The notes under the pieces: generated by a model | Told to the model about the DNA's origin: nothing | The model's input: only the letters and a program-made list of their open reading frames with translations | The model's database searches: none | IMG/VR virus record: IMGVR_UViG_3300012347_000520 | Span: 14,642-78,641 of that record | DNA: 64,000 nucleotides | From: a virus | Lineage: Duplodnaviria > Heunggongvirae > Uroviricota > Caudoviricetes | Strand: one strand, 5' to 3' | Part shown: piece after piece, positions 598-64,000 of the stretch | Layout: each line of letters opens with the position of its first letter | Numbering within the stretch: position 1 is the stretch's first letter | Position numbers and translations under genes: made by a program

Positions 598-2568
598 ATG
601 AAAAATAAAGTACTAAGATTAAATAGTGCTTTTGCCGTAGATCAGAAAGCCTTGCCTACAAGCGGAGACAGCACTATCGAATCTGTTTATATCGAAGGTT
701 ACGCAAGTACTGTAGATATTGATAGAAGCGGTGATGTTGTCCCAAAATCCGTTTGGGAAGCAGGTATTCAGAATTACCTTAAAAATCCAATTATTTTAGC
801 TCAACATAATTACGATGATCCTATCGGACGTATGACTGACTATAAAGTGGATGATAAGGGTTTGTGGGTAAAAGCCCGTATTTCTTCAGCTGCTGAAGAA
901 GTATTTGGTCTAATTAAAGACAAGATTTTGACAGCATTTAGCATTGGCTTCCGCATCTTAGATGCAGAGTACAATAGTGCTGCAGAGGTATTTGTTATTA
1001 AGGAACTTGAACTTGTCGAAATTTCGGTAGTTTCTGTGCCTTGTAATCAAAATACCCTATTTGATTTGTCTAAAGCATTTGATACTGCTGAAGACTATAA
1101 AGAATTTAAACAGCAATTTGCACCCAAAGGCGACTCAGCTAAAGGGCTAGAATCCAAAACGGAAGCAAAAAGCACAACAACAAAGGAATTGGAAATGACT
1201 CCAGAAGAAATTCAAAAAATGCTTGCTGACGCCGCTGCAAAAGCCGCTGAAGAAGCTACTACAAAACTACTAGCTACTCAAGCTGCTCAAAAAGCTGCTC
1301 AAGAAGCTGAAGCAAAAGCCGCTGCTGAGCTAGATGCTCGCGTTAAAAGCGCTGTTGCTGCTCAAATCTCTGTTGGTGAAAGCGGTGCTGAACGCCTATT
1401 GGCCGAAGTTACTAAGCGTTTCGAAGACCAAGCAGAACAATCTAAGAGCGTTCTAGACGGTCTACAAGCTACTCTAAAAGAGAAAGCTGACGAGATCGCT
1501 AAGATGCAAGCTAGCAAAATGGCTTTTGCTGATCAAAAGAACAACGCTGGTTCTACATACGAAGAACGCGAAAAGGCTTTCTTGCTATCTAAAGTTTCCG
1601 GTAAAGGTATCACTGATACTAAGTTCGGTCGCGAACTAGCTGAGAAAACTGGTGCTCACTTGCCAAGCGCAACATGGGAACTAGAAGTTTCTACAAACAT
1701 GGAAGCTGAAGTACGTCGTCGTCTAGTTGTAGCTCCATTGGTTCGTGCAGTTAATATGCGCACCAACGTTATGACTATGCCAGTTAACCCAGAAGCAGGT
1801 TTAGCTACTTGGGTAACTAACAGCCAATTCGGTGCTGCTCCAAGTGCTCTAGGCGCTGCTGGTGCTTCTGCTGGTGCTTCACAAACTCATGCATTAAAAG
1901 AAATTACTCTAAATGCATATAAAGTTGCTACCAACGAATATCTAAACTACGAAGAAGAAGAAGACAGCCTATTGGTAATCATGCCTATCGTTCGCGATGC
2001 TATGGTCCGCCGTTTAGCTCGTTCTGTTGACCGCGCCTACTTGATGGGTACAGGTTCAGGTACAGACCCAGTTAAAGGTATCGCACTATACGATGCAGCT
2101 TCTACTGTAACTCCAGCTGTTGGTACTGCTGCTTCTATCGCTAACCTACGCAGTCTACGTAAAGACCTAGGTGCATGGGGTCTAGATCCATCAGAATTAG
2201 TATACGTTGTTTCTACAGAAGTATACTACGACTTGCTAGATGACGAGTCATTCCAGACTATGAACAACGTTGGCGCACAAGCTACATTGTTAACTGGTCA
2301 AGTAGGTTCTATCGGTAACACTCCAGTTCTAGTATCTGGTGAGTTCCCAACTAAGGCTTCTGGCGCTGCTACAGGTACTGCTAACATCGGTGCTCTATGT
2401 TTTGCTCCAGGTAACTTCTTAGCAGGTAACCAACGCGGTCTACGCTTCGATACACAAGATCTAGTTGAAACACAACGTCGTGTTTTAGTAGGTTCTATGC
2501 GTACCGGTCTAACACAAGTAACTACTAACCTAGGTGCTGGTGTTTCTACTCTACGTTGGGCTGCTTAA
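598..2568 (+). CDS. prohead protease - scaffold (delta-like) - HK97-fold major capsid protein, single polypeptide
   Basis: N-terminus carries HK97-type prohead protease (S78/U35) motifs (EGYASTVDIDRSGDVV, AQHNYDDPIG, FSIGF). Central Ala/Glu/Lys-rich coiled coil looks scaffold-like. C-terminal ~300 aa resembles a Phage_capsid/HK97 major capsid protein. Strong RBS AAGGAA upstream and a strong hairpin terminator downstream. Confidence 0.7.
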   Translation: MKNKVLRLNSAFAVDQKALPTSGDSTIESVYIEGYASTVDIDRSGDVVPKSVWEAGIQNYLKNPIILAQHNYDDPIGRMTDYKVDDKGLWVKARISSAAEEVFGLIKDKILTAFSIGFRILDAEYNSAAEVFVIKELELVEISVVSVPCNQNTLFDLSKAFDTAEDYKEFKQQFAPKGDSAKGLESKTEAKSTTTKELEMTPEEIQKMLADAAAKAAEEATTKLLATQAAQKAAQEAEAKAAAELDARVKSAVAAQISVGESGAERLLAEVTKRFEDQAEQSKSVLDGLQATLKEKADEIAKMQASKMAFADQKNNAGSTYEEREKAFLLSKVSGKGITDTKFGRELAEKTGAHLPSATWELEVSTNMEAEVRRRLVVAPLVRAVNMRTNVMTMPVNPEAGLATWVTNSQFGAAPSALGAAGASAGASQTHALKEITLNAYKVATNEYLNYEEEEDSLLVIMPIVRDAMVRRLARSVDRAYLMGTGSGTDPVKGIALYDAASTVTPAVGTAASIANLRSLRKDLGAWGLDPSELVYVVSTEVYYDLLDDESFQTMNNVGAQATLLTGQVGSIGNTPVLVSGEFPTKASGAATGTANIGALCFAPGNFLAGNQRGLRFDTQDLVETQRRVLVGSMRTGLTQVTTNLGAGVSTLRWAA

Positions 2569-5374: not shown

Positions 5375-6571
5375 ATGGCATTAAATTTAGTCCGTAATAG
5401 TAAGGTATTCTTTACCACAAACGTAGACGCTTTAGGAAAAGTACTAGCTACTGGGTTTGACGCAGTAAATACACATGAAATTCAGGTGTTGGACGGCTTC
5501 ACTTTCTCACAAAATACAAATAGTGACACAGTTACTATTATGGAAGCTGGTAGTGCTCCTGTTCGCGGCCAACGCGCTTTTAACACTAGCTTAGCTCCAG
5601 TTGACTTCTCATTCTCAAGCTATATCCGCCCAAGCTTCAGCGATACTGATAACGAAGTAGCTGCTGAAGAATCAGTCTTATGGAACGCTATTGCAGGTAC
5701 CGGTGCTATCGGTGCAGCAGGTGCAGCATGGACTGGCGACGATGCATTTAGCTCAGTTTCATTTGCTAACTCAAACGCTCACCAACTACAGAAGTTCGGT
5801 ATGATCTTCATTGTTGACCAAGTTGCTTACGTAGTTGACAACTGTTCTCTAAACCAAGTTACTATTGACTTCGGCTTAGACGCTATTGCTACAGCTGCAT
5901 GGTCTGGCCAAGGTACTACACTTCGTCAAGCCGGTACAGCGATTACTGCCGTAGGCGGCCAATTCAGCGGTACAGGTATCGTTGGCGAATACGAAGCCAA
6001 GAACACAGACGCTAACTACATCACAAACAAACTATCTACAGTTAGCTTGTCACTAGTTAAAGACTTAAAAGACGCCGCAGGTACTACAGTTGCAGCTTCA
6101 GGCTCTAGCTACTTAGTTCCAATTACTGGTGGTTCAGTAACTATCAACAACAACATTAACTACATTACCCCTGCTAACCTAGGTACTGTTAACGCTCCAG
6201 TTACATACTACACAGGTCAACGCTCTATTACAGGTACATTAAATGCTTATTTACGTACTGGTGTAGGCGAAACAGGTACTGGTAAGTTGCTAGCTAACAT
6301 GTTGACAGCTGCTTCCGTAACAGTTGAACCAATGTTCGCATTAGGTATCTCTATCGGCGGTGGTGCTAACCCAGTTAAAGTTGTTTTAGATATGCCTTCA
6401 ACGGTTCTAACAATCCCAACAGTTGACGTTCAACAAGTTGTTTCTACAGCTATTAACTTCACTGCTCAAGGTTCTACAGGTAGCGGTAACAACACCGTGT
6501 ACGACTTGACACAAACTAACGATATTACAGTTAAGTACTACTCACCAGACTTAACTCCATCTGCTGGTTAA
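5375..6571 (+). CDS. major tail tube protein
   Basis: 398-aa protein with strong RBS AAAGGAAAAG and its own hairpin terminator. Followed by two small chaperone ORFs and the tape measure gene, the canonical order. Thr/Ser/Gly-rich beta-type composition. Confidence 0.55.
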   Translation: MALNLVRNSKVFFTTNVDALGKVLATGFDAVNTHEIQVLDGFTFSQNTNSDTVTIMEAGSAPVRGQRAFNTSLAPVDFSFSSYIRPSFSDTDNEVAAEESVLWNAIAGTGAIGAAGAAWTGDDAFSSVSFANSNAHQLQKFGMIFIVDQVAYVVDNCSLNQVTIDFGLDAIATAAWSGQGTTLRQAGTAITAVGGQFSGTGIVGEYEAKNTDANYITNKLSTVSLSLVKDLKDAAGTTVAASGSSYLVPITGGSVTINNNINYITPANLGTVNAPVTYYTGQRSITGTLNAYLRTGVGETGTGKLLANMLTAASVTVEPMFALGISIGGGANPVKVVLDMPSTVLTIPTVDVQQVVSTAINFTAQGSTGSGNNTVYDLTQTNDITVKYYSPDLTPSAG

Positions 6572-7095: not shown

Positions 7096-7434
7096 ATGTC
7101 TGTAAAGATGACTAAAGAAGCATACTTCGAAATGTGCGAAGCTCTGGGTACAGAACCTAGTGAGGAAGAGATTCCAGTTGAAATGGATGACTTCCCTGAC
7201 GAAGTTCAGGAAGCAATATCTATTTACTATAAACTGCGTGACGACTGGGATACTATGAATGGTATCTACATGGGTAAAAGTTACGCAGGCCTTGGTGATA
7301 TTCTAGATATACTAGAGGTCGAAAATGCAGACCGCAAATACTTGTTAGAGTGGATTTCAGTAATGGATTCTGCTAGGTCGAAGGTGCTAAGTGCCCAACG
7401 TCCTAAACAAGAAACAAAAACGAAAACCCCGTAG
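7096..7434 (+). CDS. tail assembly chaperone, second ORF (gpT-like; likely expressed as a -1 frameshift fusion starting about 7039)
   Basis: 112-aa acidic ORF in the -1 frame relative to the upstream chaperone. Weak RBS of its own. Position directly before the tape measure gene. Confidence 0.5.
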   Translation: MSVKMTKEAYFEMCEALGTEPSEEEIPVEMDDFPDEVQEAISIYYKLRDDWDTMNGIYMGKSYAGLGDILDILEVENADRKYLLEWISVMDSARSKVLSAQRPKQETKTKTP

Positions 7435-7460
7435 GCTCCGGCTTACGGGGTTTTTTCTTT
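7426..7460 (+). terminator. rho-independent terminator
   Basis: aaccccgtagg-ctccgg-cttacgggg hairpin followed by ttttttcttt. The stop codon of the chaperone ORF lies inside the stem. Confidence 0.65.
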
Positions 7461-7482
7461 GGTCATAAAAAAATTTTACTAT

Positions 7483-7511
7483 TGACTTTTGAGTGCTGTG
7501 GTGATATAATA
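7483..7511 (+). promoter_or_regulatory. sigma70 consensus promoter (TTGACT-17-TATAAT with extended -10 TGaTATAAT)
   Basis: Perfect -35/-10 hexamers with 17-nt spacing about 70 nt upstream of the tape measure start. Confidence 0.6.
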
Positions 7512-7583
7512 GGGTGAATATTGTGAGTATGCCTTCAACTTTAGTAGGTTACACTCCTTAAAAAGATGACAATAGGAGAAACT

Positions 7584-10500
7584 ATGTCAAATGACTCAAT
7601 TAAATTAAGTTTTGAACTTAATGATGATAATAACAGCGTAAACAAAAACATTAAAAACGTAGAAACCCTACGTAAAGCAGTAGATGGGTTAAGCGAAACA
7701 GCAAGTAAAGCTAATATTAGTAAGAAAATGGCTGCAGCATACGGCGGTAATACCACAGAAGCTATTAAAAGCGCTAGTATGTCTCCACAAGAAAGTATTG
7801 AGTACGGACAAGCTCGTGCAGCTGTTGGTACTGGTGCTGCTGGCAGAGACTTTGCTAAACAAGCTCAAGGTCTTGGTGGACTAGTACACGTTTATGCAAC
7901 TTTTGCGGCTAACTTATTTGCAGCAAGTGCTGCTTTTACTGCACTTAAAACTGCCGCCGATACAACAAGCATGATTAAAGGTTTAGACCAACTAGGTGCG
8001 GCCAGTGGTCGTAACTTAGGACAGTTGTCTAAGAATGTAGCCGCACTTAGTGATGGCGCAGTAAGTCTTAGAGAGGCAATGACTGCAACAGCCCAAGCAA
8101 CCAGTGCAGGAATGAGCAATAAAAATTTAGAGCGCCTAACTATTGTTGCTAAAAATGCAAGTCAAGCGCTTGGGTTAAATATGCCTGACGCATTATCGCG
8201 TTTAAGTCGTGGTATTACTAAAATCGAACCTGAACTATTAGACGAATTAGGTATTTTTGTAAAAGTTGAAGAAGCTTCTACAAATTACGCACGTACAATT
8301 GGAAAAACAGCTTCTAGCTTAACTGATTTTGAAAAACGTCAAGCTTTTGCTAATGCAGCCCTTGCACAAGGCGAAGCTAAGTTTAATGAAATTAGTATGG
8401 CTGCCAACCCTTATAGCAAGTTAAGCGCAAGCATTTCTAACTTAGCACAAAATACTCTAGAGTTAGTTAATAAAGCTTTAGGCCCATTAATGACTATGTT
8501 GTCGCAAAGCCCAGGGGCGTTGTTAGCAGTATTAGGCGGTATTGGTGGAGTTTTATTAAAACAAGCTATTCCAGCTATTGGTCAGTATCGTCAAAATGCT
8601 AAGGTAATGGAAGAAGAAACGCATAAGCGTGTTCTTAACATGGTAAAAGATCAGCAGATTGCTTATGCTGAAATGGATACTATTGCGGCTATGAGCGCAG
8701 AAAAACAGTTTAGAAATGAAGCTAGTACTGTTGCAAAACTTGAAAAGCTAAGATCAGCTAGATTTAACAAAGATATCTTAGGAGAAGGCCTTCGCAGCAC
8801 TCTAAAGAAAAATGCTTTTGATATTACTGCTGAAGAAACTCAATCTCTTAAAGCCAGATCAGAAGCATTACTAGCTTCTGATGACGTAACATATAAAAAA
8901 CAAGGGCAAAAATTAGCTGCTCATTTAAAATCCTTAGAAGCTTTACGTGCACAAAGTGATGCAGTAGGCGACGCAGCGGTAGCTGCAAATGAAAAGCGAG
9001 ATTCTGCGTGGTATTCACATCAAAATCAGTTAGCTAACAACTTAGATAAACTAAATAAAACCGCCGCAAAAAGCAAGCTTTTAGCAAGTGTCGCGGATAC
9101 TGCTGCTATCCTAGGGCCGGTGGCCGCGTTTAGGCAGCTAGGTGAAGAAACCTCTAGACTAGAAGCGGGAAAGGCCGCTAAAGGTTTTATACTACTACAA
9201 GGTGCTCTAAGTACAGTAGCTACAGCAGCAGGAACCGCCATTACGGCTTTTAGCGGATGGATTTCTGTAATAGGTATTATAGTTGCTGGCATGGCAACAG
9301 TAGCTAGCTGGATGTCAAATACTACAAAAGAGACAGAGCTAACTTCACAAGCTATTGAAGGATTAAACAGCAGCGTTAAAAATATTGATAGAACAGTAGA
9401 ATCTCTTAATATGAAAGGCGTGGTAGATCAAATATCTATTGAAGCTATTCAAGCTCGTGCTACTGCTTTCGGGGAGTTAGGCGATAGCATGGCTTTAGCT
9501 ACCAAGCGCGCTTTTACAGAACTAGATAAGATGGGTTCTATTGATGTAGGTACTAATTTTATTAAAAAACTTTGGGGCGGAGACGTACAAAGTACTTTAA
9601 ATAAAAGCACAGCAGACGCAGTTGTAGCCGCATTTTCAACAATGGAACGCGGGCCTGCCGCAGACGCAGTTCGTGACTCTATTAAGAAAACTTTAGGTAT
9701 TGTAGACATAGATACTAAATCAATCGAAAAAGCTTTCGAAGGAATGTCAGAATCCGCAAAAAAGGCTAATATCGAGGCAGTAGCTAGAGATCTTAAAAAG
9801 GCCGGTGATGAGGCTAGAGTAACTGCTGCGAAAGGTACCGAACTAAAACAAAGCTTTACTGAAGCAACTAAGCAACTTCAAGATTTGCGTAATGGTTTTA
9901 TACCTCAAGATAACGTATCTAAATTTGGTACTAATATTATTACAATGGCGTCTAAGATTGACGTAGCTTTAAAGGATCCTTTACAATCATTAAATGCTAT
10001 GGTAGAAGTAGTAAAAGATTCTAATAGTTTAAGTTTCTTTGATCCTGCAACTGCCACGCGTTTAATTTCATTAAAAGGCACCGTTGAGGGTTTAAATAAT
10101 AGTTTTATTAGTGCGACTCGCGAAGTAAAAAATGTAGATGATAAAATTAAGTCTCTTAATGACGAAAAATCTGCTATAGGTTTCCCAATATTAGAAACCT
10201 CTTACAAACGCATACAACAAATCAAACAAGAACTTGAAGAGCTAAAAAATACTAAAGATATTAAAGCTAGTATTTTACTTGAAGTAGACAAGGATGTTCA
10301 AGTACTAACTGCTGAGTTTGAGCTTGCAGTTAAAAAACAATTTGTATACGGCGCCGAAGTTTTAAGCTCTAAGCTTACAGAACAATGGGCAAAAGCAGGT
10401 CAGGTAATTGGAAGCACTATTGCAAGCTTACTTGGCGATACTACTGCAGGCATCGAAATGCGTGCAAAATACGAAAAAGCTGCTTTAGAAGCACAAATTG

Positions 10501-18634: not shown

Positions 18635-18663
18635 TTGACAAATTAATGCTCCTGTGATATAAT
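18635..18663 (+). promoter_or_regulatory. sigma70 consensus promoter (TTGACA-17-TATAAT, extended -10 TGaTATAAT)
   Basis: Perfect hexamers with 17-nt spacer. Shares the motif cTGTGaTATAATAG with the promoter at 7483. Confidence 0.6.
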
Positions 18664-34288: not shown

Positions 34289-34317
34289 TTGCCATGATTT
34301 TATATTTATTGTATAAT
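34289..34317 (+). promoter_or_regulatory. sigma70-like promoter (TTGCCA-17-TATAAT) for phoH
   Basis: Hexamers with 17-nt spacing about 45 nt upstream of the phoH ATG. Overlaps a short inverted repeat atcatggc/gccatgat. Confidence 0.45.
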
Positions 34318-34360: not shown

Positions 34361-35065
34361 ATGGCAACTTCCTCAGGTAAAAAAGCTCGCAGAGCTGCTC
34401 AACAACAAAAGACTCAACCAATGGATACAGTAGCTAAACCTATTGGATTCACAGAAGTAAGGGCTCTAAATGAAATCCAACAAGATTACTTAGACGCCAT
34501 TAACGAAAATGAAGTAATTTTTGGTGTTGGGTCCGCAGGTACTGGTAAAACGTTTGTTGCTGCATCATACGCAGCTTCGCAACTATACCATCGTAAAGTA
34601 AATAAAATTATTCTAACTCGTCCTAACGTAGAAACTGGTCGTGGACTTGGCTTCCTGCCTGGCGAATTAGAAGAGAAGTATGCCCCATACTTAGACCCTT
34701 TTGACCAAGTATTTAAAAAATGCTTAGGCTCAGGATTTTATGAGTATGCACTAAAGACAAAAGCAATCGAACCTAAACCGCTAGGGTTTATGCGAGGTGC
34801 ATCATTTGAAAACGCTATTATTTTAGTAGACGAAGTTCAAAACATGACCAAAGCAGAATTCAAAATGCTGTTAACTCGTATTGGTAAGAACTGTAAGCTA
34901 ATACTTTCAGGCGACCCAGAACAGTGCGATATTACAGATAGCGGCCTAAAAGACGCCATTTACCGTCTAGAATATCTAGACGGTATTGAGGTTGTTCGAT
35001 TTATGGATGCAGACATTGTACGTAGTAAAATGTGTAAACAAATTATTATTGCTTACAAAGATTAA
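34361..35065 (+). CDS. phoH: PhoH-like ATPase
   Basis: Walker A GVGSAGTGKTFVAA and conserved PhoH blocks (LTRPNVETGRGLGFLPG, ILVDEVQNMT, GDPEQCD). Confidence 0.85.
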   Translation: MATSSGKKARRAAQQQKTQPMDTVAKPIGFTEVRALNEIQQDYLDAINENEVIFGVGSAGTGKTFVAASYAASQLYHRKVNKIILTRPNVETGRGLGFLPGELEEKYAPYLDPFDQVFKKCLGSGFYEYALKTKAIEPKPLGFMRGASFENAIILVDEVQNMTKAEFKMLLTRIGKNCKLILSGDPEQCDITDSGLKDAIYRLEYLDGIEVVRFMDADIVRSKMCKQIIIAYKD

Positions 35066-35080
35066 AAGTAAAAAAAGAAA

Positions 35081-35112
35081 AAGCCCCGTTGATTGCTCAA
35101 CGGGGCTTTTTT
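35081..35112. terminator. bidirectional rho-independent terminator at the convergence of the two arms
   Basis: aagccccgttg-attgct-caacggggctt hairpin flanked by A-run upstream and T-run downstream. Lies between the phoH stop and the stop of the minus-strand gene. Confidence 0.7.
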
Positions 35113-35116
35113 GTTT

Positions 35117-35587
35117 TTAAATAATATTCCAGCTAGTGCCATCAAATATAACCATAACAGCATCCTGAGCACCAAGTACTTTAGTTGCAGCTGTGTTTAT
35201 TTGTTGTCCACTAGTTCCTGTTACAGTTATATTTCCTGTATGCTGATTTTTAACAACATAAACTTTACCTAGTGTTCCAGTAGGTAAAGTTATTGTTATA
35301 TTGTTAATCGTAGCACCAATATAATAATCACTATCAAGTACTGTATAGTCTACAGCAGTAAGATGAACTGCGTATATGTTACTAACGCTACCTGTTGAAG
35401 ATAATACTCCCTGTGGAGTAATAGACAAACCACTGCCTACTCGAATTACGCCAAGACTGTTAGCAGTTGCAATTTCGCAATCTAAGGTAACTGGAATAAT
35501 ACCTGCAGGTGCAAGTGCCGAAGGAGGAGGATTTTGCACTAAAGCTGTTCCTGCCAAAACAGTTTGGGGTTGTCTGTTATAGCTCAT
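35117..35587 (-). CDS. small fibre-like protein, paralog C (shared C-terminal domain)
   Basis: The track ORF starts at a TTG at 35608. ATG at 35587 (MSYNRQPQ..) lies 1 nt after the upstream stop. C-terminal ~60 aa (..GNITVTGTSGQQINTAATKVLGAQDAVMVIFDGTSWNII) is related to the C-termini of 35589..35987 and 36546..36995. Confidence 0.5.
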   Translation of the reverse strand: MSYNRQPQTVLAGTALVQNPPPSALAPAGIIPVTLDCEIATANSLGVIRVGSGLSITPQGVLSSTGSVSNIYAVHLTAVDYTVLDSDYYIGATINNITITLPTGTLGKVYVVKNQHTGNITVTGTSGQQINTAATKVLGAQDAVMVIFDGTSWNII

Positions 35588-35588
35588 A

Positions 35589-35987
35589 TTATAGAATCTT
35601 CCACTCAACGCCTGAGTAAACTAGTGTTAATGCTCCGTAAGGTGCATTGATAGTAGCTGTAGCAGCTCCATCAATAGTTCCTGCTGCAGGAGTGATAGTA
35701 ATAGGTGTTGCAGGCGCTGCTAAACCTAGACCGTCCTTGATATAGAATAGTTGTCCTGTAACGCCGGCAGGTAAGTTAACCGCTACAGCTACTGGACCAG
35801 GTACTTCTACCGATACTACATCATCAGCGTTAGTGACTGCGACCGGAGTAGCAACAGCTATTCGCACTGCTTGAACAGGACTACCAGTTGCGCTGATAGT
35901 AATTGTATTAGCTCCGGTACCCGTAGTAGGTGTTACGGTAATATTGGTACCTGCTAAGATTGAGGTTGGGTTGTTTGTGTATGACAT
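35589..35987 (-). CDS. small fibre-like protein, paralog B
   Basis: MSYTNNP.. N-terminus parallel to its paralogs. C-terminus ..TIDGAATATINAPYGALTLVYSGVEWKIL. Confidence 0.5.
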   Translation of the reverse strand: MSYTNNPTSILAGTNITVTPTTGTGANTITISATGSPVQAVRIAVATPVAVTNADDVVSVEVPGPVAVAVNLPAGVTGQLFYIKDGLGLAAPATPITITPAAGTIDGAATATINAPYGALTLVYSGVEWKIL

Positions 35988-36000
35988 GAAGTCTCCTTAA

Positions 36001-36549
36001 TTAAATTTGAGTTACGACAATTTTTACGCTTGGAGTAGCCGGTCGTGTCGGCGTTACTTGAGCAGCTGTGGGTAGTAATCGCATTGCAATATCTGGGCTA
36101 CTCCACTTTATTTGTACAAAATCACCAGCAACAGCAGTAATTAAAAAGATGCCTGTACGATACCCAGCATTACCTCCTGTATCTACCAACGTAACCTCTA
36201 TGTTAGAGTTTGGTACATTAACACCATTTTGTGATAGCCAAATACTGATAGGGTCTGTACCACCATCGGTTTTGCTAATTTGCATAGTCATTGTAATAGT
36301 GTAAACACCTGTATTAGCAAAAGTAATTTGATTGCCTGCTACAATGCTTACACCGTTAGCTGATTCAGTTGTATTAAATGCTGTATTATTTCCTGTGTTA
36401 ATTACAGGGTTTGTTTGTAGTGTAGAGTCAGAAAAATATCCGTACCAGTTAGGTATTTTATCTACCGTTCCGTTTGTTACTGATAGTCCAGTTCCCACTT
36501 TTAGTATACCAAAGTTTGTAGCTGTTGCTAGTGGGGATCTGTAACTCAT
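36001..36549 (-). CDS. small fibre-like protein D (different C-terminal domain)
   Basis: Start chosen at MSYRSP.. (36549), which overlaps the upstream stop by ATGA. The longer track ORF starts at 36561. Beta-rich, Asn/Thr/Gly-rich. Confidence 0.45.
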   Translation of the reverse strand: MSYRSPLATATNFGILKVGTGLSVTNGTVDKIPNWYGYFSDSTLQTNPVINTGNNTAFNTTESANGVSIVAGNQITFANTGVYTITMTMQISKTDGGTDPISIWLSQNGVNVPNSNIEVTLVDTGGNAGYRTGIFLITAVAGDFVQIKWSSPDIAMRLLPTAAQVTPTRPATPSVKIVVTQI

Positions 36550-36995
36550 ACAATATTCCATTCTGTGCCGTTAAACACTAAAGTAATACTACCGTAGTCA
36601 GTATTGATTAAAGCACTTACGGATCCATCAATATTTGTTGCGGCTGTAACAATAATAGAGTTTGTTGAGGCATTTCCGCTTAAGTCTTTGATAATAAATA
36701 CTGTTCCTACAGGAGCTATAGGTAATACTACGCTTGATGGCGCTGCCACGTTAACGCCAATAAAGTAATCGGCTAAGGTAGCCAAATACGGTGTTGTAGT
36801 TACAATAGTAACGGGTACTAAACCAGGTGTGCCGGCAGGGCCTTGTGGGCCTGCAGGACCTTGCGGACCAGCTGGCCCCGGAGGGCCAGGAGGGCCTACT
36901 ATTATAGAGCTGTTAATAAATAAGTCATTATCGCTACAAAATGGTGCAAATGGTACCAGGGGTAGTAGGGGCGATATAGTTTGTGTTTGATACAT
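36546..36995 (-). CDS. collagen-like triple-helix repeat protein with fibre-paralog C-terminal domain
   Basis: [25 protein letters not shown] run of Gly-X-Y triplets. C-terminus ..[29 protein letters not shown] is homologous to paralogs B and C. Start 1 nt after the Dps stop. Confidence 0.6.
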
Positions 36996-36996
36996 A

Positions 36997-37449
36997 TTAT
37001 GCTTTCATACTAGCGTATAACATCCAGCCGTGTTTACGGTGTTGGTCCATACGTTCTGATAAAAAATTGGATAAACCATGCTCTTGCATTGCTTCAGCTT
37101 TAGTATACGCAGAAATTAAGTCTGTATTGATTTTACCATTAGCTAAATACAGGTTCTGTATCATTTCATATGGCGTATGTTGCTCCATAATAGGCTCACC
37201 TATAATACTAGATAAGTTATGTAGTTCCATAAGTGTAGCAGGAGCGTAGCCTCGTATGCTTCTAATCTGCTCTGCAAATACGTCAATTTTTGAGTCTACT
37301 TCGCTATATACTTTACCAAATAAATCATGGTATTCTAAAAAGTCTGGACCTTCGACATTCCAGTGGTAGCACGCAGCCACTAAAGAAAACGCAAACGTAG
37401 TGGCAAAAGCCTTCTTTGTTAGTTCTTGTAATTCTTCTAAATCTGTCAT
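36997..37449 (-). CDS. dps: Dps-like ferritin-superfamily protein
   Basis: Dps signature HWNVEGPDFLEYHDLFGKVYSE...D..AE (ferroxidase-site His/Asp/Glu spacing). 150 aa. RBS AGGAGA. Confidence 0.65.
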   Translation of the reverse strand: MTDLEELQELTKKAFATTFAFSLVAACYHWNVEGPDFLEYHDLFGKVYSEVDSKIDVFAEQIRSIRGYAPATLMELHNLSSIIGEPIMEQHTPYEMIQNLYLANGKINTDLISAYTKAEAMQEHGLSNFLSERMDQHRKHGWMLYASMKA

Positions 37450-37467
37450 TCGTTTCTCCTAAAGAAA

Positions 37468-37498
37468 AAAGCCCCACAACCTGTGGTTGCAGGGCTTA
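37468..37498 (-). terminator. rho-independent terminator (minus strand) after the Gly/Gln-rich gene
   Basis: On the minus strand, AAGCCCTGCAACC-ACA-GGTTGTGGGGCTT hairpin followed by TTTTTCTTT, then the RBS of the Dps gene. Confidence 0.6.
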
Positions 37499-37515
37499 CA
37501 ATTTACCAAAAAATA

Positions 37516-38475
37516 TTAACGAATGTTAGTGTTGGTATTTGTTGGGCTAGCTGTTAGCGTTCCGCTACCAACGTTGATTGCTTCGTTAGTTGAACGAATG
37601 CTTTGACCTAAACCGTAGATTAGGTTAGCAAGTTGACCAAACTGGGCTTGTTGCTGTTGTTGCTGTTGCATCTGATTGATGTTGTTAGTAGTAGTAATTT
37701 CTACACCACGAGTAGCAGCACCAATGTTTTGCTGGCTACGTAACTCGATTAGAGCAGCATTAGCTTCTTGTAGTTGACGAGTTAGATTTTGTTCGTACTG
37801 TGCTGTAATTAGAGCACGAGTTTTTTCACCATCGTTAGAAATATTCTGTGATATAACATAACGGTTTTCCATGATGTTTTGGTTAGTCTGAGCAGCTGTA
37901 CTCATAACAGCTTCTTTAACTCCCTCAACACGAGCTGCTAGAGCTTGGGTAATGCTGTTTAATTGTCCAGTAATACCTAGTGTTTGAGTAGCTTGTGAAG
38001 CTTCCATAGTTGCTGTTGAAACTGCAACGGATTTATCTACTGCACCAATGCCGGCCATTAAGTCCATATTTGCTTGGTTTTGTTCTGGAGGATTACGTAA
38101 AACTGCGCCGCCTACTCCGCCTTCGTTGCCGAATAAACCTCCGTTGCCGTTGCGTAGTAAGCTTCCTAAGATTAATCCACCGATTAATCCGCCGCCACTG
38201 CCAAAACCTAGACCGCCGTCTCCACTGCCGCCGCCCATAATCATACTTGGTGTCATAATTTCTGCCATAGTTTTTCCTTCTGTACCTTGGGTACTTGTTG
38301 TTGCGTCTGTTGCAACTTGTTTAATTTGTTTTGCTAACTTTTCGTAGTATTTACGAGCTTGGTCAGCCTGCTGATTTAGCGCACTCATTAGATCATCACT
38401 AACCGCTTTTGCCATTTCTGGGTCTACTGTGGTTACTGGTGTTTCTGCTGGTACGCCTTCAATTGTATCCGCCAT
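37516..38475 (-). CDS. Gly/Gln-rich protein of unknown function, highly expressed
   Basis: Start set at MADTIEG (RBS AAGGA). Acidic helical N-terminus, then a Gly-rich hydrophobic glycine-zipper-like core (GGGSGDGGLGFGSGGGLIGGLILGSLL..GGLFGNEGGVGG). Thr/Gln/Asn-rich helical C-terminal half with a poly-Q tract (QQQQQQQQ). Consensus promoter upstream and terminator downstream. Confidence 0.55.
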   Translation of the reverse strand: MADTIEGVPAETPVTTVDPEMAKAVSDDLMSALNQQADQARKYYEKLAKQIKQVATDATTSTQGTEGKTMAEIMTPSMIMGGGSGDGGLGFGSGGGLIGGLILGSLLRNGNGGLFGNEGGVGGAVLRNPPEQNQANMDLMAGIGAVDKSVAVSTATMEASQATQTLGITGQLNSITQALAARVEGVKEAVMSTAAQTNQNIMENRYVISQNISNDGEKTRALITAQYEQNLTRQLQEANAALIELRSQQNIGAATRGVEITTTNNINQMQQQQQQQAQFGQLANLIYGLGQSIRSTNEAINVGSGTLTASPTNTNTNIR

Positions 38476-38539
38476 GATAATCCTTGGGATATAAATGATA
38501 ATGCGTATCACGCGCAGTCAAATTTTTTCGACTTAGATA

Positions 38540-38568
38540 ATTATAACACTTTTGCTATATCTGGTCAA
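38540..38568 (-). promoter_or_regulatory. sigma70 consensus-like promoter on the minus strand (TTGACC-17-TATAAT)
   Basis: Minus-strand sequence ttgacc agatatagcaaaagtgt tataat lies about 65 nt upstream of the Gly/Gln-rich gene start. Confidence 0.5.
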
Positions 38569-38666
38569 TAAGAGCTTTCAGGGTTCCTGGAGCATAAATG
38601 CTAGCTGGCATAAATGCTGCAGGAACAGGATACAACTATAGAAAAAGAATTATGTTCCGGAAATGA

Positions 38667-38702
38667 AAAAAGCCCCGTAGATTTCTCTACGGGGCTTTTT
38701 TG
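38667..38702. terminator. bidirectional rho-independent terminator
   Basis: aaaagccccgtag-atttct-ctacggggctttttt with A-run and T-run on both sides. Lies downstream of the 38714 gene on the minus strand. Confidence 0.65.
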
Positions 38703-38713
38703 TTGGCTGAATT

Positions 38714-38914
38714 TTATTCGGCTACTGGATTAGCGGCTTCTTGCTCGGCAGCTTGCATTGCTGCAATTTGTGCTTGAGCTTGAGTTTTAATCTTTTCGCT
38801 TAGAGGGTTGCAGATTTTACCTGGCAACTCTTGTAAAGCTGCTAAGATAATATTAGCTTCTTCTAAGTTTAGTTCAAAGTTGAAGGTTGGGTTTGGGTTT
38901 ACTTCTTGTGTCAT
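38714..38914 (-). CDS. hypothetical small acidic protein
   Basis: Start chosen at MTQEVNPN.., 4 nt after the RNR stop. The track ORF begins 54 nt earlier, overlapping the RNR 3' end. Helical with an Ala/Gln-rich C-terminus. Confidence 0.35.
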   Translation of the reverse strand: MTQEVNPNPTFNFELNLEEANIILAALQELPGKICNPLSEKIKTQAQAQIAAMQAAEQEAANPVAE

Positions 38915-38918
38915 AATT

Positions 38919-40886
38919 TTACTTGATAGGGCATGCGCCGGTTGCACATTCAGCATCCGTGATTTCATCGAAGCTGTTTGTATTGTTTAAGTCTACTTCA
39001 CCAAGTGTTTTCACATACTCTTGGTAATCTTGTTGTGTTACTACTTCTTGAGGAAGGTATAAGTAACCCAAGTCTTTAGCCGTTTTAGTAGGATCAGTTC
39101 TGTAGATGAAAGAAACACCTACATAACAATCCCAATTCTCTAGAAGCCAGTCAATAATTGCAGGCACTTCACTAGGATCGTAACTAATAGTTACTGAAGT
39201 ATTTTGTTGATTCCACGAAGTCTGTAAGAGCTTATAACGCTCTAGCTGAACAATTGCGGACTCAATATTAACTTCTTTACCATCAACCTCGTCGAAAGGT
39301 ACTCCGTCCCACATCACAGGGAATGTTACCAATACTCCACTATCATCCACAGGGTGGTTGATAACACGATAGCCAGCGTCACGAAGCTTCTCCACGACTG
39401 GGTCATGCTTGCTAAACTGCACATTGTTGAAGATGTACTTTCCAAGTGGTTTGTGTACTCCTTCGGTCGTATCCATAATTTTGGACAGTGTGCCAGACGG
39501 CTTAATACAAGTAACGTTTTTAGGTGCTGGTAAGCCCAATTCGTTAGCCATACCAATAGCAGCACCAGTAGCAGTACGCTTAAGATACTCATAGTCATAA
39601 CTTCCCATGTCTGGACGCATAGCGATACCAGTTAAACCTACTCCGCATAAGCGCAAGAAGTAGTTATTTAAATGCCAAGATTCTTGCAAGATACCGTCAT
39701 TTAAGTCTACGCAAGTCTGACGGTAGTTAGCACGAGCAGCTAAACGAATAGCTGCGTGTAAGCCAGCAGTATCACCTTTAAATTTAGCAATATCGGTTTC
39801 TGTTAAGTTACAGAAAGCCTTATTACCTAACAAGATCTCTACACATGGGTTAGCACCTTTAAACCAAGGAGCACGACGTAGAGCTTCTACTTCGTTAATA
39901 AATCCTGGCTCTGAACCGCCTGCTTTAATCATCATCGCAAAGATTTTTTCTAAGTCTGATTTTAAAGGAGTCTTTTTAAACACTAAAGAGTTATTAGACT
40001 GTGTACGGTGTGCATTATTGTGCAACCACCAATCTTTTTTGGCTACCGCAAACTCTTGCCACTCTGGTTGATCGTAATCGAAAAGAGCAATTTCAGCGCT
40101 TCGGCGGCTACTGAGAATAGTACCCAGATGATTAACAATGTCCAGAATATCCATCCTAGTGAGTAAACTATCAGCACGACCATTAAGAATATTGGCAATA
40201 CTAACATAAGCGCTGCTAATAGCAGCATCCCCAGAACTAATCCATCCATAGCCTTTTAACCTTTCACCAGCTGGGCGTAACTGCGAGAAGTCAAGAACCA
40301 GCGTATCAGCAGGATACTTGCCTGCAATTAGTTTACCAATAGACTTAGCCCAAGCTTCAGCTGAGTCGCCTACTTGAATAGTCCAAATCTTTGTTTCTTG
40401 ATCAAATGTTTCTACGTTTTTTTCATTACCGCCTTTACCTGTGCGGGTTGAGCGTACAACTTTGATATTTTTAATAGGCTTTGAAAAGCCGTTTAGTGTT
40501 CCCACGATTGGTTTGAAACCAACGCCGCAACCTTGTAGCAATAGCCATAAGACGTCAACTACGTCATAGATTGTTTCAACGTGTGTAAACGAACAGTTAA
40601 ACTGAGACGCTTCACGTGTTTTAGCTACATTAGTACCACCAAGCCATAGTGTACGGCCTGACATTAATACTTTGCGATCTAGCATTAACTGCTCTAGATC
40701 ATATAATTCTGCATACTCTAAGTCATTTAAATCACGATTTACAGCACGTTCCCACAACCATTGTTGATGGTCAATAACGCGAGCTACCGTTTCTTGCCAT
40801 GTTTCAAAGTTCTTGCCGTCATCACTAGTTGGACGGTTATATGTACGACGTGTAATTACCTGTGCTCGTGTAGATGGTGTATTCAT
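38919..40886 (-). CDS. nrdJ: ribonucleotide reductase, probably class II (B12-dependent, NrdJ-like)
   Basis: 655-aa RNR-like catalytic protein with a C-terminal redox Cys pair in tail CATGACPIK. No NrdB/NrdG partner in the window. Glutaredoxin encoded nearby. Class assignment is from memory. Confidence 0.55.
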   Translation of the reverse strand: MNTPSTRAQVITRRTYNRPTSDDGKNFETWQETVARVIDHQQWLWERAVNRDLNDLEYAELYDLEQLMLDRKVLMSGRTLWLGGTNVAKTREASQFNCSFTHVETIYDVVDVLWLLLQGCGVGFKPIVGTLNGFSKPIKNIKVVRSTRTGKGGNEKNVETFDQETKIWTIQVGDSAEAWAKSIGKLIAGKYPADTLVLDFSQLRPAGERLKGYGWISSGDAAISSAYVSIANILNGRADSLLTRMDILDIVNHLGTILSSRRSAEIALFDYDQPEWQEFAVAKKDWWLHNNAHRTQSNNSLVFKKTPLKSDLEKIFAMMIKAGGSEPGFINEVEALRRAPWFKGANPCVEILLGNKAFCNLTETDIAKFKGDTAGLHAAIRLAARANYRQTCVDLNDGILQESWHLNNYFLRLCGVGLTGIAMRPDMGSYDYEYLKRTATGAAIGMANELGLPAPKNVTCIKPSGTLSKIMDTTEGVHKPLGKYIFNNVQFSKHDPVVEKLRDAGYRVINHPVDDSGVLVTFPVMWDGVPFDEVDGKEVNIESAIVQLERYKLLQTSWNQQNTSVTISYDPSEVPAIIDWLLENWDCYVGVSFIYRTDPTKTAKDLGYLYLPQEVVTQQDYQEYVKTLGEVDLNNTNSFDEITDAECATGACPIK

Positions 40887-47333: not shown

Positions 47334-47362
47334 ATTATAGCAGATTAGACAAGCAGTGACAA
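47334..47362 (-). promoter_or_regulatory. sigma70-like promoter on the minus strand (TTGTCA-17-TATAAT)
   Basis: Hexamers identified on the reverse complement of the 47315-47372 intergenic region. Confidence 0.4.
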
Positions 47363-54315: not shown

Positions 54316-55062
54316 TTAAGCAGCAGCTTTTGCTTCTGCTTTAGCTTTCTTAGCTGCACCATCATAGTCAGCAACTTTGATACCACGGCGAGTAAGCAAA
54401 GTACGTAGACCACGTTCTGTTTTATCAACAGCAGCAGCGATTTCAGCAACAGTCATAGTAGCGATTTTATCGCCCAATGCTGCAACTAGATCGGTAGACT
54501 CTTTAGCGTGAGATTGCTTTTGAGCTGGAATCTTGCTGATTTGGCCTTTACGTGTCAAGCTAAGAGCTTTACCACGAACTGAGGCGATAGACTTGCCCAA
54601 GACTTGAGCGATTTCTTCGATGAATGAACCACCTTCGGCCATTTTAACGAATTTAGCTTCTTCTGCTTCTGTGTATGTACGAGCAGCTTCAACTTTTTCT
54701 GCTGGCTTAACTGAGCCAGTCAATTCCAAAGCAAGCAATTTACCTTGGATTTGTTTTGCTGAGAACTTGCCAGAAGCGAAGCGTTCAGCGATTTCTTTGT
54801 AAGTAAAGTTACCAGCATTGCTGTTAACGTAAGCGGCCAATGCATCGCCTTCGTCAGTAGTAAAAGCGCTAGTCTTTTCTTTAGCCATAGAAGCAACTTC
54901 ATGGTCCATCTGACGCAATTTGCTTGCAACTGATCGTGTTGTAAAGCCTAGAGCTTCAGCGATTTGTTCCACAGTACCTGCGGAAACTGGAGATTCACCA
55001 CCAACGATGTTCAACATTTGTGCGGTGGCTTCGTCAGACCATTTTTTAGCTTTTTCAGTCAT
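54316..55062 (-). CDS. protein with four tandem ~55-aa helix-turn-helix-like repeats (putative DNA-binding/regulatory)
   Basis: The pattern ..(V/I)EEIA..LG(K)S..SVR.KL..L.R.G recurs four times (TVEQIAEALGFTTRSVASKLRQM; YKEIAERFASGKFSAKQIQGKLLAL; FIEEIAQVLGKSIASVRGKALSL; VAEIAAAVDKTERGLRTLLTRRG). Followed by a strong terminator. Confidence 0.55.
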   Translation of the reverse strand: MTEKAKKWSDEATAQMLNIVGGESPVSAGTVEQIAEALGFTTRSVASKLRQMDHEVASMAKEKTSAFTTDEGDALAAYVNSNAGNFTYKEIAERFASGKFSAKQIQGKLLALELTGSVKPAEKVEAARTYTEAEEAKFVKMAEGGSFIEEIAQVLGKSIASVRGKALSLTRKGQISKIPAQKQSHAKESTDLVAALGDKIATMTVAEIAAAVDKTERGLRTLLTRRGIKVADYDGAAKKAKAEAKAAA

Positions 55063-61598: not shown

Positions 61599-61683
61599 GT
61601 GTTTCCTTAGTGTTATATTGCTGTGTAAAAAATAATTATATCAAATAGTATTCAATATTTCAAGAATATATTTTTGCAACAAA

Positions 61684-61714: not shown

Positions 61715-61789
61715 TGGTGCGCTAACTAGGAATTGAACCTAGACTCGACCGATTATGAGTCGGCTGCTTTACCATTAAGCTATTAGCGC
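61715..61789 (-). tRNA. tRNA-Met (anticodon CAT; could be Ile2 if lysidinylated)
   Basis: Reverse complement folds as a cloverleaf: acceptor GCGCTAA/TTAGCGC, D-arm GCTT-AATGGTA-AAGC, anticodon arm GCCGA-CTCATAA-TCGGT, T-arm CTAGG-TTCAATT-CCTAG, encoded CCA. 75 nt. Confidence 0.75.
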
Positions 61790-63897: not shown

Positions 63898-63972
63898 ATT
63901 TTATATTTGGTACGTCGTGACGGTTTCGAACCGCCGACCCTCTCCGTGTAAAGGAGACGCTCTACCCCTGAG
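63898..63972 (-). tRNA. tRNA-Val (anticodon TAC)
   Basis: Reverse complement GCGTTGT-TA-GCTC-AGGGGTA-GAGC-G-TCTCC-TTTACAC-GGAGA-GGGTC-GGCGG-TTCGAAA-CCGTC-ACGACGT-A-CCA forms a standard 75-nt cloverleaf. Coordinates +/-2. Confidence 0.7.
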
Positions 63973-63981
63973 CTAACAACG

Positions 63982-64000
63982 CATTTATTTGTGGAGCGGG
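63982..64000 (-). tRNA. possible 3' end of a further tRNA running off the window edge
   Basis: The minus strand reads ...CCCGCTCCA, then a 9-nt spacer before tRNA-Val, consistent with a tRNA array. Only about 10 nt are visible. Confidence 0.2.

Follow-up and report, generated by a model that had tools for sequence, protein, structure and literature searches.

A mobile cassette of fibre-type genes and an unannotated Gly- and Gln-rich protein in a predicted T5-like phage may encode an optional virion fibre or decoration

In the nap of the Bacillus and Clostridioides exosporium, BclA-type filaments consist of an N-terminal targeting peptide, a Gly-X-Y stalk, and a C1q/TNF-like head, and they stand on a basal-layer protein. 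Among phages, the non-essential decoration and head-fibre proteins include SPP1 gp12, a collagen-like trimer at the hexon centres; phi29 gp8.5, an alpha-helical coiled-coil head fibre; T5 pb10; and T4 Hoc (PMC7602432). Here we analysed a 64,000-nt stretch of a tailed-phage genome (IMG/VR record IMGVR_UViG_3300012347_000520, positions 14,642 to 78,641; hereafter the window), which contains a cassette of six minus-strand genes, ORF1 to ORF6, at positions 35117-38475. By analogy, its closest counterparts would be the BclA nap of spore exosporia and the decoration proteins SPP1 gp12 and phi29 gp8.5. We tentatively propose that the cassette encodes an accessory fibre or decoration that the virion can do without, and for which ORF1 would be the abundant base, a reading to which we give a probability of roughly 0.4. 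An initial annotation, made from the letters of the window, had offered an accessory appendage, an intracellular structure, or a host-interaction system; our analysis favours the appendage but does not prove it. The coordinates of all features are collected in Table 1.

The resemblance to BclA filaments lies in the proteins encoded downstream of ORF1. ORF3 contains nine uninterrupted Gly-X-Y triplets (27 residues), in agreement with its first description as a collagen protein, and it scores 21.4 against the Pfam collagen family (PF01391), below the cutoff of 27.2 because the tract is short. Its homologs carry 5-27 triplets and share an N-terminal design that is Q-rich, then Pro/Phe/Trp-rich, and then contains the motif DDxDLFIN. 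ORF4, ORF5, and ORF6 had been described as three small beta-rich proteins; they are indeed of fibre type, but ORF4 is more than beta-rich and appears BclA_C/C1q-like. The window protein itself has no BclA_C match in Pfam, while among 18 homologs three match BclA_C (best 3e-5) and one matches TNF. ORF4 also reaches 25.1 bits (1.3e-5) against NCBIfam GXX_rpt_CTERM, below the cutoff of 50, and the best PDB match of its profile is the exosporium protein 7r1m, at a weak E of 0.1. GenBank relatives of ORF4 are labelled C1q/cerebellin-like. In phage phiAC-1, a BclA_C/C1q-like domain forms the C-terminal end of a protein whose gene directly follows that of the capsid.

ORF3, ORF5, and ORF6 share a C-terminal domain (BLASTP 2e-14, 1e-8, and 3e-4). 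This sharing had been noticed before, with a length of about 60 amino acids (aa); the sharing is real and the domain is longer, at about 90 aa. In predicted structure it matches the fibre-adaptor sandwich of the T4 gp9/gp10 type. The AlphaFold model of ORF5 has a pLDDT of 76 overall and 80-93 within the domain, and its Foldseek matches in the PDB (9f4a_LS at 2.7e-4, 1qex at 4.4e-4, 7rfv/7rej, 5iv5, and 2fl8; E 2.7e-4 to 5e-3, probability 1.0) are a Klebsiella phage baseplate protein, T4 gp9 and gp10, and the N-terminal adaptor domains of CBA120 TSP4. The same model has 164 matches in BFVD at E <= 1e-3, among them proteins labelled 'Baseplate structural protein Gp9/Gp10', tailspikes of the pectate-lyase type, and numerous phage and giant-virus proteins with collagen repeats. 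PHROG tail-fibre and baseplate families are matched by ORF3, ORF5, and ORF6 via the collagen repeat and the C-terminal domain. N-terminally, ORF4, ORF5, and ORF6 have an MSYxxxP motif in common, and ORF4 and ORF6 also share GxxKVGxGLS (in ORF4 the two combine as MSYxxP..GxxKVGxGL). Together, ORF3-ORF6 resemble fibre-type building blocks that we infer to be trimeric.

Both comparisons have their limits. Like BclA filaments, the cassette proteins combine a short Pro-rich hydrophobic N-terminal peptide, a collagen repeat, and a predicted trimeric beta head, and their abundant partner ORF1 is encoded adjacent to them. In the cassette, however, stalk and head would lie on separate polypeptides, as ORF3 ends in the gp9/gp10-like sandwich and ORF4 has no collagen repeat. 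The ORF3 stalk is also short, the context is a phage, and ORF1 is unrelated in sequence to BxpB/ExsY. Compared with T4 gp9/gp10 and CBA120 TSP4, the adaptor-like domain makes up nearly the whole of proteins of 130-160 aa that have no enzymatic or receptor-binding body, and the cassette genes lie outside the baseplate module. Against Pfam Phage_depo_C (PF25692), the shared domain scored 17.0 and 16.4 bits, below the cutoff of 25.

ORF1 is a different kind of protein. It begins with a helix (residues 19-59), followed by a Gly/Leu/Phe-rich low-complexity segment (70-129), a Q/N/T/A/S-rich region (130-297) predicted to be helical (pLDDT 72-85), and an invariant tail. The low-complexity segment contains 22 Gly (37%), with LGFG/GLFG motifs around the invariant GGLIGGLILGSLLR. 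The protein has no Cys, Trp, or His and contains 12% Gly, and Q, N, T, A, and S make up 54% of its C-terminal 190 residues. DGEKTRALI, a Gln run, and the C-terminal AINVGSGT..NTNTNIR are nearly invariant across the family, which comprises more than 2,097 metagenomic clusters at 90% identity and 396 at 50%. Queries with the single sequence and with a profile of 45 sequences found no match for ORF1 in Pfam, PHROG (E <= 0.01), NCBIfam, PADLOC, or, by sequence, the PDB; at the same PHROG threshold there was no homology to structural or early families of T5 (Demerecviridae), and Pfam gave no domain fusions in ten long family members. The predicted model is essentially one long helix and is weak (pLDDT 61, pTM 0.22), so the absence of any Foldseek match to it is little informative. 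The family is large, without annotation, and apparently highly expressed. The earlier view that no protein of the cassette corresponds to a well-characterised phage function holds for ORF1, but it was too strong for the Dps protein ORF2 (below), the gp9/gp10-like domain, and the C1q-like head. We also considered and rejected a scaffolding role for ORF1, an idea prompted by analogy to the nested lambda C/Nu3 pair: its gene is in the wrong module, half of the relatives lack it, and it occurs in unrelated backbones.

The link between ORF1 and the fibre-type genes comes from comparative genomics. Each of the six ORFs has numerous homologs in other sequences. We fetched 80 IMG/VR loci via ORF1, 64 of them non-redundant. 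In 61 of these 64 loci, and in several backbones, the gene after ORF1, or after ORF1 and Dps, is collagen-like; the C1q-like, ORF5-like, and ORF6-like genes may be present or missing. Besides the T5-like backbone, at least four unrelated ones contain the cassette, at different genomic sites: beside an endonuclease/phosphoesterase, beside an RNA ligase, in Cpn10/RNaseH/RNA ligase phages, and directly after the large terminase gene (TerL) among fibre/decoration genes, as in L023 and L065. The coupling within ORF2-ORF6 is tight (TAAtATG, an ATGA overlap of ORF4 with ORF3, Shine-Dalgarno plus ATG, and TAAtATG), which agrees in part with the initial proposal of six coupled genes in one operon; the relatives do not support a single fixed operon of six. 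The conserved core is ORF1 plus the collagen-like gene, and the region is a mobile accessory island.

A second set of genomes showed how often the cassette is missing. We chose T5-like relatives via the RNR gene (87-94% identical), which gave 57 non-redundant junctions between RNR and PhoH. ORF1 is absent from 33 of these junctions, and 12 of the 33 have only 240-307 nt between RNR and PhoH. The gap ranges from 240 nt to 5.6 kb and can contain nothing, Dps only, C1q only, or fibre genes without ORF1; three loci (L004, L144, and L145) have it in inverted orientation. Divergence within the lineage is faster for the cassette proteins than for core genes (median identities of 59.5% for ORF1, 45% for the collagen-like protein, and 43% for the C1q-like protein, versus 91% for RNR, 78% for flap endonuclease, and 67% for PhoH), with ORF5 as the exception at 73%. 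A 284-kb jumbo contig with rIIB (L087) contains collagen-like, C1q-like, adaptor-domain, and ORF5 genes at 7318-10399, the last 86% identical to ORF5 of the window. An ORF1 homolog is missing there, and two unrelated ORFs occupy its position. Fibre genes without ORF1 also occur in L137, and ORF1 without fibre genes occurs in Acinetobacter phage At2, Iodobacter phage PhiPLPE, and KLER1-1. Since the cassette is absent from 33 of 57 relatives, leaves 12 sites empty, and is found in several backbones, it is a dispensable, horizontally mobile, and modular unit, inserted where the late and early arms converge. Whether it is conserved or mobile had been left to comparative genomics, and the answer is that it is mobile with a conserved ORF1/collagen core.

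The variability of this junction also allows for another explanation, that there is no functional unit and the junction is a hot spot of unrelated accessory genes whose adjacency reflects insertion history. The wide range of gap sizes and contents, the movement of Dps among three positions and both strands, and the inverted cassettes are all in keeping with this. A hot spot does not readily account for the order of ORF1 and then collagen in 61 of 64 loci, at different sites in at least four unrelated backbones, nor for the translational coupling of ORF2-6, the MSYxxxP motif of ORF4/5/6, or the C-terminal domain shared by ORF3/5/6, and we consider it quite unlikely.

Dispensability likewise bears on whether these genes are simply the ordinary tail-fibre or host-range cassette of the lineage, an equivalent of the T5 side fibres, which we judge very improbable. 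This would fit the PHROG tail-fibre matches via the collagen repeat and C-terminal domain, the gp9/gp10-like domain as a known fibre connector, and the GenBank label 'putative tail-fiber protein' of PhiPLPE gp38, a member of the ORF1 family, although that label has no mass spectrometry (MS) backing. The initial annotation had likewise allowed for a routine fibre cassette with conserved synteny. Instead, more than half of the near-identical relatives lack the cassette and still have a complete structural arm, and the large fibre/baseplate proteins of the phage are encoded in the plus arm. The cassette proteins have no paralogs in the tail module or elsewhere in the window, and a candidate paralogy with its large fibre proteins was dropped because none was found. 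In addition, ORF5 is conserved at 83-94% identity in more than 100 clusters, unlike fast-evolving receptor-binding tips; a tblastn search of phage records with ORF5 gave no match.

ORF2 had been called Dps-like, and by sequence it is a true Dps (DNA-binding protein from starved cells). It scores 56 bits against Pfam Ferritin (PF00210; cutoff 24.5) over residues 13-146, matches PHROG 3636 at 1e-24, and matches 35 Dps chains in the PDB, the best being 8ff9 at 1e-12. His29, His41, Asp56, and Glu60 align with four conserved ferroxidase ligands of these ferritin-like dodecamers. It differs from them in having Gly in place of the acidic residue four positions after the second His, in its score below the NCBIfam equivalog cutoffs (38.8 versus 114 bits), and in its short, acidic N-terminus. 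The last makes DNA binding via a Lys-rich tail unlikely and suggests handling of iron and reactive oxygen species rather than DNA condensation. Among relatives, Dps is found after ORF1, at the cassette end, or on the opposite strand next to PhoH, and in others it is missing. It rides as a passenger in a variable island and is unrelated to the fibre part. Seven relatives (L008, L012, L019, L029, L032, L043, and L063) have a second, longer Dps-like ORF of 263-272 aa on the opposite strand beside PhoH, and in some of them the junction is surrounded by as many as three Dps-like genes.

ORF1 appears to be highly expressed, as was first suggested. The near-consensus promoter TTGACC-17-TATAAT noted upstream of it is present, and in homologous loci the TATAAT -10 is kept, often with a match of 11-12 of 12 consensus positions. 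As a distinguishing mark, this promoter has less value. At least five other intergenic promoters in the window, in both arms, score 11-12/12, most with an extended -10 TG; those at 7482 and 18635 precede tail genes, one lies directly before the tape-measure gene, and the one at 18635 is a perfect 12/12. Since such promoters also precede tail genes, the promoter class is uninformative on timing or uniqueness, and we dropped promoter strength as a marker of early genes. The phage seems to use host-type promoters for its late genes too. The number of promoter-like sites in the region (14, versus 10 +/- 3 expected from shuffled sequence) is not above expectation.

Terminators and codon usage speak for high expression of ORF1. 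Both hairpin-plus-U terminators said to bracket ORF1 were found, the upstream one by eye, as the terminator scan misses a hairpin whose stem absorbs the T run. The downstream one is only 20 nt from the start of Dps, so that the genes beyond it depend on read-through. A hairpin of <= -10 kcal/mol with a T run within about 50 nt of the ORF1 stop occurs in 42 of 58 non-redundant homologous loci, and this conservation implies a high ratio of ORF1 to fibre proteins. The effective number of codons (ENC) of ORF1 is 36.7, the third most biased of 51 window genes and close to the major tail protein (36.5) and the protease-capsid fusion (37.3). That the most biased gene encodes the T5 D5-like regulator (33.9) supports ENC as a proxy of abundance in the window.

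ORF1 is probably translated into two nested products, starting at Met1 and Met70. A Shine-Dalgarno sequence precedes the Met70 ATG in all 44 non-redundant long-form ORF1 genes, although the encoded residues differ, and precedes other internal ATGs in 28 of 456 cases (>=4 nt) or 5 of 456 (>=5 nt). ORF1 homologs in other backbones, At2, and KLER1-1 are 240-290 aa long and start at or just before the Gly-rich segment, most of these short forms at the residue aligned with Met70. The N-terminal extension is lineage-specific while the core is shared, and its helix (19-59) would be a lineage-specific add-on; in relative L070 the extension is a separate ORF. Two in-frame starts with N-terminally different products recall holin/antiholin proteins. 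As a holin/antiholin ORF1 was rejected, being too large (250-319 aa), with a hydrophobic segment of 37% Gly, and not a small membrane protein; it is encoded away from the endolysin, with the lysis cassette on the other strand, and has no holin family match in Pfam or PHROG. In non-T5 backbones (L040, L052, L053, L055, L057, L062, L064, L071, and others), a conserved ORF of 65-90 aa with the motif LSIPLLLRLFEYIREExTTDEDLHFMAERI lies directly upstream of the short-form ORF1 and may be a further cassette member.

We found the family in three cultured phages. A tblastn search of 50,697 phage records with ORF1 returned only At2, where the homolog follows the gene of a 1348-aa tail protein. Using At2 as a bridge, we found gp38 of PhiPLPE and gp74 of KLER1-1, the latter among early genes. 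PhiPLPE gp38 lies beside two MS-confirmed virion proteins, and the MS note in its record covers three proteins only. Megablast of the region against the same 50,697 records gave no match. We found no description of the cassette or of ORF1 relatives in the literature, and the paper on the PhiPLPE group is silent on gp38. Prophages of Lelliottia wanjuensis (L093, 9317-10790) and Buttiauxella brennerae (L094) contain distant members with a Gly/Tyr-rich head. In Lelliottia, the gene is last but one before host purB-hflD-mnmA, 3 kb beyond a tail fibre gene and that of its assembly protein (Tfa), and is followed by a Q/P/Y-rich ORF of 128 aa. The enterobacterial homolog had no blastn match in 5,426 E. 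coli genomes, and a scan of the genome collection with the narrower alignment A5 found four loci only. The contexts of the family are mixed, leaning structural or cargo.

The cargo side of this picture could signify that ORF1 is a moron-type host-interaction protein, associated with the envelope or membrane and active in superinfection exclusion or cell-surface remodelling, with the fibre genes as separate virion parts sharing the island. Here ORF1 would act through its N-terminal Gly-zipper-like hydrophobic segment, with long and short isoforms of differing topology. ORF1 resembles morons in Hendrix's sense in having its own sigma-70 promoter and intrinsic terminator, as judged by consensus, and in being present or absent between the same flanking genes. 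The Lelliottia gene at the distal prophage end by purB, after tail fibre and Tfa genes, and KLER1-1 gp74 among early genes fit as well, and the conserved dual start, with a short form starting at the hydrophobic Gly-rich segment, could by analogy recall the topology control of holin and antiholin. However, that segment (22 Gly in 60 residues) is, by a rough estimate from sequence, too weakly hydrophobic for a standard transmembrane helix, ORF1 has no signal peptide or positive N-terminal charge, and no PADLOC or PHROG exclusion family matches it. Differences from morons are a GC content (0.395-0.416 across 34-40 kb) that does not depart from that of the remaining window, a phage that looks lytic, and linked downstream genes of structural type. 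Adjacency to a collagen-like gene in 61 of 64 loci across backbones is also hard to explain without a functional link. We regard a moron-type role as unlikely.

The composition of ORF1 raises another option, in which it forms an intracellular or cell-associated structure outside the virion, such as a cohesive matrix, a condensate, or a filament, with the collagen/C1q proteins attached. A GLFG-like Gly/Phe/Leu low-complexity head on a long Q/N-rich helical rod is the basis of this idea, and the lack of Cys, Trp, and His and the apparently very high expression agree with it. So do the RGG/YG-rich or His/Lys-rich disordered N-termini of distant family members and the Gly/Tyr-rich head and Q/P/Y-rich neighbour of the Lelliottia member. 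The hydrophobic periodicity of the helical region is nearer 3.67 (11/3) than 3.5 (7/2), but this signal is weak. To our knowledge there is no precedent for such a structure in phages of this size, and the folds of the downstream proteins are known only from virion fibres and baseplates; we hold this option to be highly doubtful. A bolder variant, which we rate as a long shot, is that the ORF1 family is a new class of abundant protein with nested isoforms that builds something other than a classical virion part and bears BclA-like collagen/C1q fibres, a transferable 'exosporium-like nap'. It would assemble via the GLFG-like Gly-rich head and the Q/N-rich rod; a cohesive coat or matrix on the particle or on the envelope of the infected cell are candidate forms, and it would work on siphophages, myophages, and prophage hosts alike.

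Under the reading of an optional virion fibre or decoration, ORF1 would be transcribed as a strong terminator-bracketed unit, translated from Met1 and Met70, and would assemble in large amounts into an elongated alpha-helical oligomer, the base or stalk. The coupled downstream proteins would be made in lower amounts, by read-through of the ORF1 terminator. ORF3 would be a short collagen-like trimer that docks via its Pro/aromatic-rich N-terminus, ORF4 a C1q/BclA_C-like head protein, and ORF5 and ORF6 small gp9/gp10-sandwich proteins. Together, ORF3-ORF6 may form short, possibly branched fibres for reversible adhesion, as for Hoc, pb10, SPP1 gp12, and phi29 gp8.5, and Dps would be an iron/oxidative-stress passenger that shares the variable island. 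In this scheme we infer the oligomeric state, the contact between ORF1 and ORF3, the location on the virion, and the function in adhesion.

Several lines of evidence favour this scheme: the gp9/gp10-like folds and PHROG tail-fibre/baseplate matches of ORF3/5/6 and the BclA_C/C1q-like ORF4; the linkage of ORF1 and collagen in 61 of 64 loci; the structural contexts in L023, L065, PhiPLPE, and At2; codon bias at the level of the major tail protein and the protease-capsid fusion; and a terminator kept in 42 of 58 loci. ORF1 also has a lineage-specific N-extension over a shared core, as is usual for virion-docking domains. Absence from 33 of 57 junctions, 12 of them empty, matches the non-essential nature of known decoration proteins (PMC7602432). 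Like SPP1 gp12, phi29 gp8.5, T5 pb10, and T4 Hoc, the cassette is dispensable, and it is predicted to give collagen-like or coiled-coil trimers, expected in high copy, with a proposed role in adhesion. Their genes lie in the head module, whereas the cassette is at the end of the early arm and falls inside structural modules only in the L023/L065 lineage and PhiPLPE; further, ORF1 has no sequence or fold match to them.

Other observations weigh against a virion role. ORF1 has no detectable similarity to any virion protein in Pfam, PHROG, PDB, or Foldseek searches, its model being weak. The neighbours of the cassette, in the window and in most other backbones, are early or nucleotide-metabolism genes (RNR, RNA ligase, endonuclease, RNaseH, and Cpn10). 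Backbones as unrelated as a T5-like siphophage, Cpn10/RNaseH-like/RNA-ligase phages, and, in part, a jumbo phage are awkward for specific docking to a virion. The ORF1 unit has a textbook moron architecture, in the enterobacterial prophage its place is past the tail-fibre assembly gene, in the cargo zone, and fibre genes and ORF1 each occur without the other.

Virion and lysis genes occupy the plus strand of the window from position 1 to about 35,065, with PhoH last, and replication and nucleotide-metabolism genes occupy the minus strand from 64,000 down to 35,117, where the cassette closes the early arm at the point where both arms converge. The gene content of both arms agrees with its initial placement between the virion/lysis arm and the replication genes and with a function outside replication. 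The minus arm also contains SbcCD-like genes, a flap endonuclease, and a dCTP deaminase/dUTPase besides the D5-like regulator, and two tRNA genes, which are usual in the early arm of T5-like phages. At about 34% identity, the capsid fusion resembles the protease and capsid proteins known from T5-like phages (of Vibrio, Aeromonas, Escherichia, and others), and the source is therefore predicted to be a distant T5-like siphophage. There is no T5-type delta/scaffolding domain between the two parts of the fusion, and no separate scaffold gene was recognised in the window. Related contigs are about 96-102 kb, and sample names suggest lake metagenomes; one of them, L007, was dismissed as the source contig because its identity is only 84%. 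Between RNR and the cassette lies a small conserved ORF, o84, with the motif EANxILAALQELPxKxCNPL; as it is also kept in relatives without the cassette, it belongs to the backbone. Both the Rfam and the tRNA scan of the cassette region gave no match.

Table 1 Predicted features of the cassette and of the rest of the window.
Feature	Position	Strand	Remarks
ORF1, 319 aa	37516-38475	-	Likely start ATG 38475, favoured by homolog alignments
ORF2, Dps-family ferritin-like, 150 aa	36997-37449	-	
ORF3, collagen-like	36546-36995	-	Q-rich/Pro-Phe-rich N-terminus, DNDLFIN motif, (G-X-Y)9, gp9/gp10-like C-terminal beta-sandwich
ORF4, 182 aa	36001-36549	-	Likely start ATG 36549, favoured by homolog alignments; ATGA overlaps ORF3 stop; BclA_C/C1q/TNF-like head
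ORF5, 132 aa	35589-35987	-	MSYxxxP N-terminus, gp9/gp10-like beta-sandwich
ORF6, 156 aa	35117-35587	-	Likely start ATG 35587, favoured by homolog alignments; MSYxxxP N-terminus, GxxRVGxGL motif, gp9/gp10-like beta-sandwich
Sigma-70-type promoter TTGACC-17-TGtTATAAT	38568-38540	-	Consensus match 11/12, extended -10 TG
Internal Shine-Dalgarno AAGGA + ATG (Met70)	38266-38279	-	Putative start of nested 250-aa short isoform
Hairpin+U terminator upstream of ORF1 promoter	38666-38700	-	Ends RNR/o84 transcript; read from letters as aaaaagccccgtag-agaaat-ctacggggctttttt
Hairpin+U terminator directly 3' of ORF1	37469-37497	-	Attenuator ahead of downstream genes
Bidirectional hairpin terminator	35077-35112	both	16-bp stem, T runs on each strand; between PhoH end and ORF6 end
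Small conserved ORF o84	38714-38968	-	50-nt overlap with RNR 3' end
Class II-type RNR	38919-40886	-	
PhoH	34361-35065	+	
Lysis genes	32.2-34.3 kb	+	Strand opposite ORF1
Prohead-protease/major-capsid fusion	598-2568	+	656 aa; protease ~25-320, capsid ~460-641
Major tail protein	5375-6571	+	
Tape measure, 2193 aa	7566-14147	+	Size implies very long tail
Repeat-rich baseplate/fibre protein, 2113 aa	22345-28686	+	<=8 stretches matching PHROG baseplate-wedge and virion-structural families
T5 D5-like transcription regulator/DNA-binding protein	54316-55062	-	PHROG 323, 5.5e-40
tRNA-Met(CAT)	61715-61789	-	Early arm
tRNA-Val(TAC)	63908-63982	-	Early arm
Other near-consensus sigma-70 promoters	7482-7510, 18635-18663, 34289-34317	+	
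Other near-consensus sigma-70 promoters	47334-47362, 61635-61663	-	

Accessory phage fibres and decorations are already known; at the centre of the present one would stand a large, uncharacterised family with a probable nested start. Should the favoured reading be true, the cassette would be a self-contained fibre or decoration module exchanged by unrelated freshwater phages and gained or lost among close relatives. The conserved internal start makes a concrete, testable prediction, and the relatives with and without the cassette are natural controls. Characterising the ORF1 family would clear a sizeable piece of viral dark matter, and the cassette would offer a natural system for accessory adhesins in phage ecology, in adsorption to particles, hosts, or mucus-like matrices.

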